From Nemertoderma westbladi (Eukaryota > Animalia > Xenacoelomorpha), in the NCBI GenBank assembly GCA_032718475.1, contig JAUCBJ010006806.1, positions 1 through 64,000 on the forward strand: a DNA stretch of 64,000 nt. The letters are read 5' to 3'. A model generated the notes under the pieces. That model was not told the origin of the DNA and made no database searches. It worked only from the letters and a program-made list of their open reading frames with translations. The translations under genes and the position numbers were made by a program. This document shows, one piece after another, positions 21,445 through 45,003 of this stretch (its first letter is position 1; every line of letters begins with the position of its first letter).

Positions 21445-21579
21445 CATCAGAAGCGTCGAAAAAAGATCGAAGGAGCAACGTTGTAAGCGAGGTAGAAAGG
21501 CTAAAGAAGAACAGAGAGGAACGCCGAGCCAAACAGGCTGAGGCGCTGATACAGAAACAGCAGCTAATAGAGGAAGCGG
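21445..21579 (+). CDS. KIF2A: Kinesin-13 coding exon 5 (neck helix)
   Basis: ttttacag|CA; SEASKKDRRSNVVSEVERLKKNREERRAKQAEALIQKQQLIEEA is the kinesin-13 neck (R.S.VV.EVE.L...RE.RR). Donor GCGG|GTGAGT, phase 1. Confidence 0.92.
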
Positions 21580-24500
21580 GTGAGTGAGGGGCTGATACAG
21601 AAACAGCAGCTAATAGAGGAAGCGGGTGAGTGAGGGGCTGATACAGAAACAGCAGCTAATAGAGGAAGCGGGTGAGTGAGGGGCTGATACAGAAACAGCA
21701 GCTAATAGAGGAAGCGGGTGAGTGAGGGGCTGATACAGAAACAGCAGCTAATAGAGGAAGCGGGTGAGTGAGGGGCTGATACAGAAACAGCAGCTAATAG
21801 AGGAAGCGGGTGAGTGAGGGGCTGATACAGAAACAGCAGCTAATAGAGGAAGCGGGCGAGTGAGGGGCTGATACAGAAACAGCAGCTAATAGAGGAAGCG
21901 GGTGAGTGAGGGGCTGATACAGAAACAGCAGCTAATAGAGGAAGCGGGTGAGTGAGGGGCTGATACAGAAACAGCAGCTAATAGAGGAAGCGGGTGAGTG
22001 AGGGGCTGATACAGAAACAACAGCTAATAGAGGAAGCGGGTGAGTGAGGGGCTGATACAGAAACAGCAGCTAATAGAGGAAGCGGGTGAGTGAGGGGCTG
22101 ATACAGAAACAGCAGCTAATAGAGGAAGCGGGTGAGTGAGGGGCTGATACAGAAAGAGCAGCTGATAAAGGAAGCGGGTGAGTGAGGGGCTGATACAGAA
22201 ACAGCAGCTAATAGAGGAAGCGGGTGAGTGAGGGGCTGATACAGAAACAGCAGCTAATAGAGGAAGCGGGTGAGTGAGGGGCTGATACAGAAAGAGCAGC
22301 TGATAAAGGAAGCGGGTGAGTGAGGGGCTGATACAGAAACAGCAGCTAATGGAGGAAGCGGGTGAGTGAGGGGCTGATACAGAAACAGCAGCTAATAGAG
22401 GAAGCGGGTGAGTGAGGGGCTGATACAGAAACAGCAGCTAATAGAGGAAGCGGGTGAGTGAGGGGCTGATACAGAAAGAGCAGCTAATAGAGGAAGCGGG
22501 TGAGTGAGGGGCTGATACAGAAACAGCAGCTAATAGAGGAAGCGGGTGAGTGAGGGGCTGATACAGAAAGAGCAGCTGATAAAGGAAGCGGGTGAGTGAG
22601 GGGCTGATACAGAAACAGCAGCTAATGGAGGAAGCGGGTGAGTGAGGGGCTGATACAGAAACAGCAGCTAATAGAGGAAGCGGGTGAGTGAGGGGCTGAT
22701 ACAGAAACAGCAGCTGATAGAGGAAGCGGGTGAGTGAGGGGCTGATACAGAAAGAGCAGCTGATAAAGGAAGCGGGTGAGTGAGGGGCTGATATAGAAAG
22801 AGCAGCTGATAGAGGAAGCGGGTGAGTGAGAGGCTGATACAGAAACAGCAGCTAATAGAGGAAGCGGGTGAGTGAGGGGCTGATACAGAAACAGCAGCTA
22901 ATAGAGGAAGCGGGTGAGTGAGGGGCTGATACAGAAACAGCAGCTAATAGAGGAAGCGGGTGAGTGAGGGGCTGATACAGAAACAGCAGCTAATAGAGGA
23001 AGCGGGTGAGTGAGAGGCTGATACAGAAACAGCAGCTAATAGAGGAAGCGGGTGAGTGAGGGGCTGATACAGAAACAGCAGCTAATAGAGGAAGCGGGTG
23101 AGTGAGGGGCTGATACAGAAACATCAGCTAATAGAGGAAGCGGGTGAGTGAGGGGCTGATACAGAAACAGCAGCTAATGGAGGAAGCGGGTGAGTGAGGG
23201 GCTGATACAGAAAGAGCAGCTAATAGAGGAAGCGGGTGAGTGAGGGGCTGATACAGAAAGAGCAGCTAATAGAGGAAGCGGGTGAGAGAGGGGCTGATAC
23301 AGAAACATCAGCTAATAGAGGAAGCGGGTGAGTGAGGGGCTGATACAGAAACAGCAGCTAATAGAGGAAGCGGCTGAGTGAGGGGCTGATACAGAAACAG
23401 CAGCTAATAGAGGAAGCGGGTGAGTGAGGGGCTGATACAGAAACAGCAGCTGATAGAGGAAGCGGGTGAGTGAGGGGCTGATACAGAAACAGCAGCTAAT
23501 AGAGGAAGCGGGTGAGTGAGGGGCTGATACAGAAACAGCAGCTAATAGAGGAAGCGGGTGAGTGAGGGGCTGATACAGAAAGAGCAGCTGATAGAGGAAT
23601 CGGGTGAGTGAGGGGCTGATACATAAACAGCAGCTAATAGAGGAAGCAGGTGAGTGAGGGGCTGATACAGAAACAGCAGCTAATAGAGGAAGCGGGTGAG
23701 TGAGGGGCTGATACAGAAAGAGCAGCTGATAGAGGAAGCGGGTGAGTGAGGGGCTGATACAGAAACAGCAGCTAATAGAGGAAGCGGGTGAGTGAGGGGC
23801 TGATACAATAGAGAAAGCGGATGAGTGAGGGGCTGATACAGAAACAGCAACTAATAGAGGAAGCGGGTGAGTGAGAGGCTGATACAGAAACAGCAGCTAA
23901 TAGAGGAAGCGGGTGAGTGAGGGGCTGATACAGAAACAGCAGCTAATAGAGGAAGCGGGTGAGTGAGGGGCTGATACAGAAACAGCAGCTAATAGAGGAA
24001 GCGGGTGAGTGAGGGGCTGATACAGAAAGAGCAGCTGATAGAGGAAGCGGGTGAGTGAGGGGCTGATACAGAAACAGCAGCTAATAGAGGAAGCGGGTGA
24101 GTGAGGGGCTGATACAGAAACAGCAGCTAATAGAGGAAGCGGGTGAGTGAGGGGCTGATACAGAAACAGCAACTAATAGAGGAAGCGGGTGAGTGAGAGG
24201 CTGATACAGAAACAGCAGCTAATAGAGGAAGCGGGTGAGTGAGGGGCTGATACAGAAACAGCAGCTAATACAGGAAGCGGGTGAAGAGGGGCTGATACAG
24301 AAACAGCAGCTAATAGAGGAAGCGGGTGAGTGAGGGGCTGATACAGAAACAGCAGCTAATAGAGGAAGCGGGTGAGTGAGGGGCTGATACAGAAACAGCA
24401 GCTAATAGAGGAAGCGGGTGAGTGAGAGGCTGATACAGAAACAACAGCTAATAGAGGAAGCGGGTGAGTGAGGGGCTGATACAGAAACAGCAACTAATAG

Positions 24501-42516: not shown

Positions 42517-45003
42517 GATAGAGTAAACGGGTGAGTGAGAGGCTGCGATACAGAAACAGCAGCTAATAGAGGAAGCGGGTGAGTGAGGGGCTGATACAGA
42601 AAGAGCAGCTGATAGAGGAAGCGGGTGAGTGAGGGGCTGATACAGAAACAGCAGCTAATAGAGGAAGCGGGTGAGTGAGGGGCTGATACAGAAACAGCAG
42701 CTAATAGAGGAAGCGGGTGAGTGAGGGGCTGATACAGAAACAGCAGCTAATAGAGGAAGCGGGTGAGTGAGGGGCTGATACAGAAAGAGCAGCTGATAGA
42801 AGAAGCGGGTGAGTGAGGGGCTGATACAGAAAGAGCAGCTGATAGAGGAAGCGGGTGAGTGAGGGGCTGATACAGAAAGAGCAGCTGATAGAGGAAGCGG
42901 GTGAGTGAGGCGCAGATACAGAAACAGCAGCTAATAGAGGAAGCGGGTGAGTGAGGGGCTGATACAGAAACAGCAGCTAATAGAGGAAGTGGGTGAGTGA
43001 GGGGCTGATACAGAAACAGCAACTACTAGAGGAAGCGGGTGAGTGAGAGGCTGATACAGAAACAGCAGCTAATAGAGGAAGCGGCTGAGTGAGGGGCTGA
43101 TACAGAAACAGCAGCTAATAGAGGAAGCGGGTGAGTGAGGGGCTGATACAGAAACAGCAGCTAATACAGGAAGCGGGTGAGTGAGGGGCTGATACAGAAA
43201 CAGCAGCTAATACAGGAAGCGGGTGAGTGAGGGGCTGATACAGAAACAGCAGCTAATAAAGGAAGCGGGGTGAGTGAGGCGCAGATACAGAAACAGCAGC
43301 TAATAGAGGAAGCGGGTGAATTGAGGGGCTGATACAGAAACAGCAGCTAATAGAGGAAGCGGGTGAGTGAGGGGCTGATACAGAAGCAGCAGCTAATGGA
43401 TGAAGCGGGTGAGTGAGGGGCTGATACAGAAACAGCAGCTGATAGAGTAAGCGGGTGAGTGGGGGGCTGATACAGAAACAGCAGCTAAAAGAGGAAGCGG
43501 GTGAGTGAGGGGCTGATACAGAAACAGCAGCTAATAGAGGAAGCGGGTGAGTGAGGGGCTGATACAGAAACAGCTGCTAATAGAGGAAGCGGGTGAATTG
43601 AGGGGCTGATACAGAAACAGCAGCTAATAGAGGAAGCGGGTGAGTGAGGGGCTGATACAGAAACAGCAGCTAAAAGAGGAAGCGGGTGAGTGAGGGGCTG
43701 ATACAGAAACAGCAGCTGATAGAGTAAGCGGGTGAGTGGGGGGCTGATACAGAAACAGCAGCTAAAAGAGGAAGCGGGTGAGTGAGGGGCTGATACAGAA
43801 ACAGCAGCTAATAGAGGAAGCGGGTGAGTGAGGCGCAGATACAGAAACAGCAGCTAATAGAGGAAGCGGGTGAATTGAGGGGCTGATACAGAAACAGCAG
43901 CTAATAGAGGAAGCGGGTGAGTGAGGGGCTGATACAGAAACAGCAGCTAATAGAGGAAGCGGGTGAGTGAGGGGCTGATACAGAAAGAGCAGCTAATAGA
44001 GGAAGCGGGTGAGTGAGGGGCTGATACAGAAAGAGCAGCTAATAGAGGAAGCGGGTGAGTGAGGGGCTGATACAGAAACAGCAGCTAATAGAGGAAGCGG
44101 GTGAGTGAGGGGCTGATACAGAAAGAGCAGCTAATAGAGGAAGCGGGTGAGTGAGGGGCTGATACAGAAAGAGCAGCTAATAGAGGAAGCGGGTGAGTGA
44201 GGGGCTGATACAGAAAGAGCAGCTAATAGAGGAAGCGGGTGAGTGAGGGGCTGATACAGAAACAGCAGCTAATAGAGGAAGCGGGTGAGTGAGGGGCTGA
44301 TACAGAAAGAGCAGCTAATAGAGGAAGCGGGTGAGTGAGGGGCTGATACAGAAAGAGCAGCTAATAGAGGAAGCGGGTGAGTGAGGGGCTGATACAGAAA
44401 CAGCAGCTAATAGAGGAAGCGGGTGAGTGAGGGGCTGATACAGAAGCAGCAGCTAATGGATGAAGCGGGTGAGTGAGGGGCTGATACAGAAACAGCAGCT
44501 GATAGAGTAAGCGGGTGAGTGGGGGGCTGATACAGAAACAGCAGCTAAAAGAGGAAGCGGGTGAGTGAGGGGCTGATACAGAAACAGCTGCTAAAAGAGG
44601 AAGCGGGTGAGTGAGGGGCTGATACAGAAACAGCAGCTAATAGAGGAAGCGGGTGAGTGAGAGGCTGATACAGAAACAGCAGCTGATAGAGTAAGCGGGT
44701 GAGTGAGGGGCTGATACAGAAACAGCAGCTAATAGAGGAAGCGGGTGAGTGAGTGGCTGATACAGAAACAGCAGCTAAAAGAGGAAGCGGGTGAGTGAGG
44801 GGCTGATACAGAAACAGCAGCTAATAGAGGAAGCGGGTGAGTGAGGGGCTGATACAGAAACAGCAGCTAATAGATGAAGCGGGTGAGATGGGAATACCAT
44901 TAACTTGGTTTCTGTTCGACCAATGTATATTATTTTATCATATGAAACTGACCCCACTATGTCTCTACCACTAGTGTCTCATTCATCGTGTTTACCTTTC
45001 CAG

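Follow-up and report, generated by a model that had tools for sequence, protein, structure and literature searches.

How does the spliceosome choose among several hundred nearly identical copies of the same 5′ splice site? The question is raised by an intron of a kinesin-13 (KIF2 / MCAK / Klp10A-like) gene of Nemertoderma westbladi (Xenacoelomorpha). The gene occupies the + strand of a 64,000-nucleotide (nt) stretch of DNA, hereafter the window (positions 1 to 64,000 of the forward strand of contig JAUCBJ010006806.1, assembly GCA_032718475.1). A first-pass annotation of the window had described this intron, intron 5, as a ~120-nt intron inflated to 23.4 kb by a repeat that carries ~400 decoy donors. 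Minisatellites that span a splice junction serve as natural models of 5′ splice site choice among identical copies, as described for human F7 (PMC1557585). Two opposed rules have been reported: in F7 the site chosen is the most upstream one (PMC1557585), whereas in constructs with duplicated sites it is the intron-proximal one (PMC3413131). From the sequence of the locus and by analogy with the described systems, we think it probable that a junction-spanning minisatellite was expanded here to 399 copies and that the array is spliced out through its first donor.

A 46-bp unit spans the 5′ splice site of intron 5

The exon upstream of the repeat (exon 5; 21429-21579, + strand) was delimited by its open reading frame (ORF), by tblastn matches to orthologs (P0020, P0062 and P0082) and by the acceptor ttattttag/G. 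The labels exon 5 and intron 5 are those of the first-pass annotation; the upstream exons 2-4 are weakly supported. Exon 5 codes for a conserved segment of the neck, ...RRSNVVSEVERLKKNREERRAKQAEALIQKQQLIEEA, and ends in phase 1, one base into a Gly codon; in tblastn the alignment with orthologs extends to the last residues of the exon. Its final bases, up to 21579, are ...GAG GAA GCG G, and GTGAGT, the donor, begins at 21580. This authentic site, CGG/GTGAGT (donor at 21580-21585, + strand), matches the CAG/GTAAGT consensus at 7 of 9 positions.

Tandem copies of this junction fill most of the intron. Tandem Repeats Finder (TRF) detected the repeat, of period 46 bp, in two segments, 21539-37547 and 42518-44887; the matches are 95-96% and the scores 25,049, 4,265 and 4,238. 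On the basis of TRF, a donor scan and unit typing, array 1 was divided into part A (21539-37547, + strand) and part B (42517-44887, + strand; last unit 44842-44887). The first unit (21539-21584) is composed of the final 41 nt of exon 5 (21539-21579) followed by GTGAG, and the repeat continues neither at the base before 21539 nor at the base after 44887. Since both edges are unambiguous, the unit corresponds exactly to exon positions −41 to −1 plus intron positions +1 to +5. Position 21539, earlier given as the start of the intron, is where the array begins, within exon 5, and the first base of the intron is 21580.

The donor scan was run with a donor-centred 19-mer, and up to 5 substitutions were allowed. 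It located 399 donor-like sites in array 1, between 21580 and 44883, in good agreement with the ~400 near-identical donors announced by the first-pass annotation. The spacing from donor to donor is exactly 46 nt in 368 of 398 cases. The GT dinucleotide is kept at 392 of the 399 sites and the hexamer GTGAGT at 367, and the 9-mer of the authentic site, CGG/GTGAGT, is common to 350.

At its 3′ end, the last unit closes with gcgg/gtgag (gtgag at 44883-44887) and is followed by the unique sequence atggg, hence the last donor reads CGG/GTGAGA (44883-44888, + strand; 6 of 9 consensus matches). The unique 3′ part of the intron (44888-45003, + strand) has a pyrimidine-rich 3′ end, ...gtttacctttccag, with the acceptor AG at 45002-45003. 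From the last GT to the end of the acceptor (44883-45003) there are 121 nt; both the position of the last unit and this distance had been given in the first-pass annotation and are read directly in the sequence. The whole intron (21580-45003) measures 23,424 nt; the array makes up ~18.4 kb of it, a transposon 5 kb and the unique 3′ part 116 nt. The proposed inflation to 23.4 kb is thus real as far as the array and the intron length are concerned, but 4,969 bp of it (37548-42516) belong to a long terminal repeat (LTR) retrotransposon that had been overlooked. The unit of array 1 is 74% purine and lacks a pyrimidine tract. With its tandem units, the authentic boundary in the first monomer and the near-identical pseudo-donors that follow, array 1 can be classed, as judged by sequence, as a junction-spanning minisatellite.

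The case for the first donor

In the reading that we favor, the spliceosome would use the first donor, so that the whole array would leave as intron. If the first donor is skipped, an in-frame TGA is met at 21585-21587 (+ strand), where the ORF at 21429-21587 ends, as had been noted before. The unit has stops in every + frame. Since stops occur in all + frames, and the first of them lies directly after the first donor, any mRNA spliced from a later donor would be truncated. Exon 6 (45004-45262, + strand) begins with the GT that completes the Gly codon, codes for neck and the start of the motor, and aligns to orthologs. Splicing from the first donor to exon 6 would place 21 residues between the KNREERR-type and the PNFDF..MI-type neck motifs; the spacing in orthologs is 16-21 residues (both motifs were found in 47 of 120 orthologs). 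The first donor appears to be the sole one that gives an open frame and an ortholog-like neck spacing, which bears out the earlier statement that it is needed for an intact product. The description of the stop as a guard, on the other hand, was overstated. The unit begins with TGAGG, so the unit-to-unit junction GTGAG/TGAGG makes the TGA at 21585-21587 as a by-product, and the ancestral 121-nt intron, if retained, would likewise shift the frame.

Donor 1 differs from the decoys by context alone: it closes a 151-nt exon that has a real acceptor, and it is transcribed first. It could be chosen as the only donor that closes a real exon (exon definition). Alternatively, it could be chosen as the first to emerge from the polymerase, by 5′-to-3′ "oriented scanning" or by tethering of U1 to RNA polymerase II (Pol II); Leader et al. 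2021 reported that the upstream 5′ splice site is tethered to Pol II via U1 during synthesis of the intron (PMC8316553). The 398 downstream copies would probably bind U1 yet stay silent, by analogy with human F7 intron 7 and the "mirages" of amphioxus. Recursive splicing or the formation of pseudo-exons within array 1 was considered and rejected: only 4 AG/GTRAGT sites are present (21539-44890), and there is no pyrimidine tract.

Origin and growth of array 1

The sequence of the array suggests how it arose. A 46-bp piece spanning the junction (41 nt of exon end and 5 nt of intron start) would have been duplicated in tandem and then expanded to 399 copies. The ancestor would have been a 121-nt intron with a GTGAGA donor, and the duplication junction would have converted position +6 from A to the consensus T in every donor but the last. 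This ancestry, and the upgrade of the donor to GTGAGT by duplication, had been proposed in the first-pass annotation, and collapsing the array gives exactly that arrangement, with the junction setting the T at +6. We consider an origin by junction-spanning duplication followed by expansion to be well supported by these features. The intron would have grown ~190-fold, from 121 nt to 23.4 kb.

Other routes to such an array were discarded. Microhomology-mediated origin was rejected: TGAG is present at both breakpoints, but both copies are kept at the junction, hence the homology was unused. The unit is not a coding repeat, with stops in all three + frames and a stop about every 138 nt on the − strand. 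Nor does the locus fit intron gain of the Rogers type, in which both splice sites should derive from the duplicated segment; here the acceptor and 44888-45003 are unique and lie outside the repeat. Because the duplication did not include the acceptor or the final 116 nt, an existing intron was enlarged and no new one was made.

The units fall into 83 types, and 131 of the 399 are identical to the consensus. In the 369 units of exactly 46 nt the mean is 1.0 mismatch to the consensus per unit (~2% divergence); the length variants measure 33, 45, 47, 48, 50 and 53 nt. A stretch of 35 consecutive units, 1,616 bp in all, is found again without change 42 units farther along, and another of 25 units is repeated 40 units away; when the unit order was shuffled 200 times, the longest recurrence was of 8 units. 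These long identical runs are the signature, in the one haplotype available, of recent multi-unit duplication by unequal exchange. In the 369 full-length units, the numbers of variants at donor positions +1 to +6 are 5, 1, 0, 1, 18 and 5, within the spread of the other positions. Selection on the donors was therefore rejected, the per-position counts showing a GT that is neither protected nor decaying. With silent decoys, the array would be close to neutral, an unstable product left behind by unequal exchange, and no dedicated control device.

A retrotransposon interrupts the array between parts A and B. The element (37548-42516, − strand; 4,969 bp) was identified by its LTRs, its target-site duplication and its Pfam domains. 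The 210-bp LTRs (37548-37757 and 42307-42516) have TG...CA ends and differ at 0 positions. A 5-bp target-site duplication, GATAG, is found at 37543-47 and 42517-21, within a repeat unit. Its upstream ORF (39449-42298, − strand) codes for a 949-residue gag-protease-integrase with the PF00665 integrase core, and the downstream ORF (37826-39448, − strand) for a 540-residue reverse transcriptase-RNase H (RVT_2; PF07727). By these characters the insert can be assigned to the Ty1/copia type, and it appears to be a young, intact LTR retrotransposon antisense to the gene. As the target-site duplication lies inside a unit and the LTRs are 100% identical, the array predates the insertion.

A comparison of orthologous introns had been put forward as a check of this origin. 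The intron was sought in distant relatives only, in a metagenome scan that recovered distantly related kinesin-13 genes at 31 loci, with 36-75% identity to parts of exon 6. No intron was found there at the intron 5 position, where the exon is uninterrupted in three loci (L018, L019 and L024). At the intron 9 position the exon is likewise uninterrupted in five loci (L017, L019, L026, L027 and L028). The SGK/VFDLL intron is the only one apparently common to the window gene and these distant genes (L017, L018, L019, L024, L026, L027 and L028). Since the gene structures of the distant relatives differ almost everywhere, the missing intron neither supports nor refutes the proposed origin.

The host gene

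Exon 6 (45004-45262) was used as the query of a protein search, which gave 914 relatives at E≤0.001, and the best 120 of the 914 are considered here. Where a source name is given, it is KIF2A, KIF2C, Klp10A, kinesin-like or hypothetical; the identity to exon 6 is 58-70%, the top match being 70%, and no protein of the same species was among them. A search for RNA runs with the four-exon stretch 44888-48544 likewise listed none. When relative proteins were used in tblastn, exons were placed at ~9084, 21429-21579, 45004-45262, ~47252-47379, 48016-48184, 48430-48580 and 59811-59962. Exon 9 matched the Pfam kinesin motor domain PF00225, and exon-by-exon tblastn found the P-loop, KVD, SSRSHA and DLAGNERG segments across exons 6-10. 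With a neck that precedes the kinesin motor domain and best matches to KIF2A, KIF2C and Klp10A, the predicted product is that of a kinesin-13 gene. The gene looks intact, since every exon seen in the window is open and the family motifs are kept.

Three introns of this gene are in phase 1 and fall within a GGT glycine codon (21579/45004, 47379/48016 and 48580/59811). In all three cases the upstream exon ends with G and the downstream exon begins with GT (GTCCAA, GTAAAA and GTACGA).

A second array in intron 9

The same gene carries a second array of junction-spanning design (array 2; 48545-57672, + strand), identified by TRF and by the donor scan. Its 40-bp unit consists of the terminal ~35 nt of exon 9 (48430-48580) followed by GTAAG, and the intron runs from 48581 to 59810. 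The TRF matches are 91-92%. The scan located 230 donor-like sites, 223 with GT; 167 read CTG/GTAAGT and 39 read CAG/GTAAGT. The CAG/GTAAGT sites are spread over the whole array and resemble recursive sites in sequence, but no pyrimidine tract accompanies them. An in-frame TAA lies four codons past the authentic donor of exon 9. At its 3′ end, array 2 breaks in mid-unit at 57672, into a 10-bp AT-rich microrepeat (57666-57720). For this reason its ancestral donor is unreadable, and the A-to-T upgrade at +6 is read for array 1 only. The units of both arrays include only 4-5 intron bases. According to TRF, no other array in the window is as large as these two donor-bearing ones.

Donor competition and other explanations

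A number of observations weigh against clean use of the first donor. The local sequence is the same for donor 1 and for the decoys, both in the 41 nt upstream and in everything downstream, and the predicted unpaired probabilities at the first three donors are 0.55, 0.57 and 0.59. Masking by RNA structure was thus rejected as a means of telling them apart: the exon end folds together with units at a minimum free energy of −39.8, shuffled sequences give −39.9 ± 4.7, and the donors are equally accessible. The decoys match the consensus at 7 of 9 positions, and the real donor of exon 6, TCG/GTTGGT, at 5 of 9. Hodson et al. 2012 reported that with two identical strong donors at least 45 nt apart, intron-proximal use reaches ~100% (PMC3413131), and the decoy spacing of 46 nt falls within that range. 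In the precedents described, the pseudo-sites number no more than 25 and the introns measure a few kb, so that 398 decoys over 23 kb would be an extrapolation of the analogy. In addition, IFI6 and CBS are reported to use two pseudo-sites besides the authentic donor (PMC1557585), and some leakage from the decoys is plausible by comparison. Finally, the identical LTRs and the identical blocks date both the insertion and the latest expansions to a very recent time, and the intact exons are thus weak proof of a working gene.

In one alternative, that of leaky decoys, many transcripts would be spliced from later donors, most likely the last ones, which lie 121-170 nt from the acceptor; the products would carry a stop and be subject to nonsense-mediated decay, and array length would lower or tune kinesin-13 output, as the first-pass annotation, which also proposed a truncated protein, had suggested. 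The intron-proximal preference for identical strong donors (PMC3413131), the retention of GT at 392 of 399 sites with no sign of inactivation, the in-frame stop right after the first donor and the pseudo-sites used in IFI6 and CBS (PMC1557585) would all fit such leakage. So would the correlation of the repeat number of F7 intron 7 with the mRNA level, which is given by a secondary source (PMC3492156). That correlation is positive, however (more repeats, more mRNA), which is opposite to the direction expected if decoys cause loss (PMC3492156); an effect of copy number on expression may have a precedent in F7, though not in that direction. Moreover, raising the consensus value of the F7 pseudo-sites to 91 is described as leaving them silent (PMC1557585), and the mirages reportedly yield no aberrant mRNAs (PMC3087553, PMC3902484). 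We consider extensive use of the decoys unlikely. Another reading is that of a decaying or redundant gene copy: it would be no longer needed, or one of several paralogs, and could bear both arrays, the retrotransposon and the further repeats because splicing fidelity would be irrelevant. Several kinesin-13 paralogs are common in animals. Two arrays in one gene, each of which would be expected to disturb splicing under the proximity rule, could be taken in this sense, and the 100% identity of the LTRs and of the repeated blocks points to events so recent that the exons would not yet have decayed. Against this, all exons in the window are open with family motifs kept, and the arrays are not brand new (~2% unit divergence in array 1, 91-92% TRF matches in array 2) while the exons are intact. 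The same arrangement is also reported in working genes, namely F7, Adh3 and globins (PMC1557585, PMC3087553). A dispensable copy thus seems quite improbable to us.

Still less weight falls on the remaining two explanations. The array could exist, with its length and its identical blocks being in part artefacts of assembly. The 100% identity of the two repeated runs, of 35 units (lag 42) and of 25 units (lag 40), might have such a cause, and a globin mirage of amphioxus is reported to have looked aberrantly assembled in the draft genome (PMC3087553). The array nevertheless contains 83 unit types in an ordered, non-random pattern and unit lengths of 33, 45, 47, 48, 50 and 53 nt, it houses a retrotransposon with a clean target-site duplication, and both its edges join unique sequence cleanly; we regard a serious inflation as very improbable. 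Equally remote, in our estimation, is the idea that hundreds of strong U1 sites have been retained by selection as a platform that suppresses premature polyadenylation or boosts transcription. The quality of the donors in both arrays (367 of 399 GTGAGT; 206 of 230 CTG or CAG/GTAAGT) and the fact that the two largest arrays of the window are its donor-bearing ones are in its favor, as are the 7 AATAAA motifs read on the intron's + strand, 5 being located in the retrotransposon. Yet in the 369 units the donor positions vary no less than many others, several non-donor positions have 0 variants, and concerted evolution alone can keep the units alike. Use of the first donor, with the array removed as intron, remains the reading that we retain.

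Comparison with known systems

Junction-spanning minisatellites with silent pseudo-donors are already described (PMC1557585, PMC3087553, PMC3902484). Borensztajn et al. 2006 reported minisatellites whose first monomer lies across an exon-intron boundary in human F7, IFI6, CBS, LMNB2 and PDGF (PMC1557585). Intron 7 of F7 (IVS7) contains 5-9 copies of a 37-bp unit; the most upstream donor is always chosen, and the pseudo-sites, which are functional but silent, do not compete at a consensus value of up to 91 (PMC1557585). IFI6, with 25 pseudo-sites, is the largest human case listed there (PMC1557585). As in these genes, the first monomer of array 1 spans the boundary and identical pseudo-donors follow; the arrays are described as polymorphic or unstable in the human cases. 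The differences are of scale and composition. The 5-9 copies of F7 and the 25 pseudo-sites of IFI6 compare with 398 decoys in array 1, and the F7 unit has 4 nt of exon and 33 nt of intron, whereas that of array 1 has 41 nt of exon and 5 nt of intron. The donors differ in strength, being weak in F7 (UGG/gugggu) and strong in array 1 (CGG/GTGAGT). Unlike the F7-type cases as described, the kinesin-13 gene carries two such arrays. Splicing of F7 was established by experiment, while the kinesin-13 array is known here from sequence alone.

Ebner et al. 2010 (PMC3087553) and Pavelitz et al. 2013 (PMC3902484) described the mirages of amphioxus, tandem repeats of exon-intron boundaries whose length is unstable and which are reported to leave splicing undisturbed. 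They are reported in Adh3, TnC, the globins BflGb6 and BflGb9, and PGBD5 (PMC3087553, PMC3902484). They resemble the present case in that splice signals are multiplied in an invertebrate gene and undergo concerted evolution, with units of 10-72 bp in Adh3, and differ in having few units, e.g., 3 and 6 in BflGb6 (PMC3087553, PMC3902484). The organism studied here is not amphioxus: the top Branchiostoma matches among the best 120 of 914 have 63-64% identity over exon 6. The gigantic introns of the Drosophila Y-linked genes kl-3 and kl-5 are also nearly all tandem repeat and are transcribed and then removed, but they are described as megabases of simple satellites unrelated to the exons of the genes, and as needing dedicated RNA-binding proteins (PMC6508621). 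In the kinesin-13 intron, in contrast, the repeat amounts to 18 kb, and its 46-bp unit was copied from a splice junction of the same gene. In the Rogers model, in which an AGGT-bearing exon segment is duplicated, an internal tandem duplication likewise multiplies splice signals (PMC4974935, PMC3443670); the kinesin-13 locus differs from that model in having made no new intron. Junction-spanning minisatellites are thus a known kind, to which the kinesin-13 array adds a member and no new mechanism. What is unusual is the scale (398 decoys versus 25 or fewer in the named human cases), the presence of a second array in the same gene, and units with 4-5 intron bases.

Other repeats in the window

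The introns of the kinesin-13 gene are unusually rich in tandem repeats. Intronic minisatellites that do not derive from neighboring exon ends are located at 60597-62025 (28 bp × 51) and at 58374-58745 (39 bp × 5, with variants). At 17716-18236 there are purine-rich 21/42-bp units with several GGTG/GGTA donor-like motifs. Two fragments of one family of non-LTR retrotransposons, with the common tail ...FRREDQPVHNLVLWQPH..., were also found. The one at 18762-19781 (− strand) matches RVT_1 and sits in the intron before exon 5, and the one at 63053-63824 (− strand) sits downstream of the 28-bp array. Intronic homopolymers comprise ~25 C at 59741-59765 and more than 12 G at about 47407-47420.

What the locus means for donor choice

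Apart from the question of the donors, array 1 is probably an ordinary, neutral and unstable repeat. The locus exceeds the described cases more than tenfold, with 398 decoys at the critical spacing of 46 nt and an intron taken from 121 nt to 23.4 kb. Array 2 provides an internal replicate, with donors that are either a perfect CAG/GTAAGT or a near-consensus CTG/GTAAGT. The breakpoint shared by both arrays, 4-5 bases into the intron, may reflect chance or a survival filter. A bolder view, to which we give little credence at present, takes the locus as a natural stress test with 399 donors. If the mRNA is normal, 5′-to-3′ order, through exon definition or U1-Pol II tethering, would override proximity over 23 kb and against 398 rivals that are its equals or better placed, and a survival filter would fix only those junction duplications that strengthen the upstream donor, followed by a runaway in size. 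Should first-donor use prove clean, the gene would argue strongly, in vivo, for a commitment that is co-transcriptional and set by order; should it not, the kinesin-13 gene would be throttled by its own repeat.

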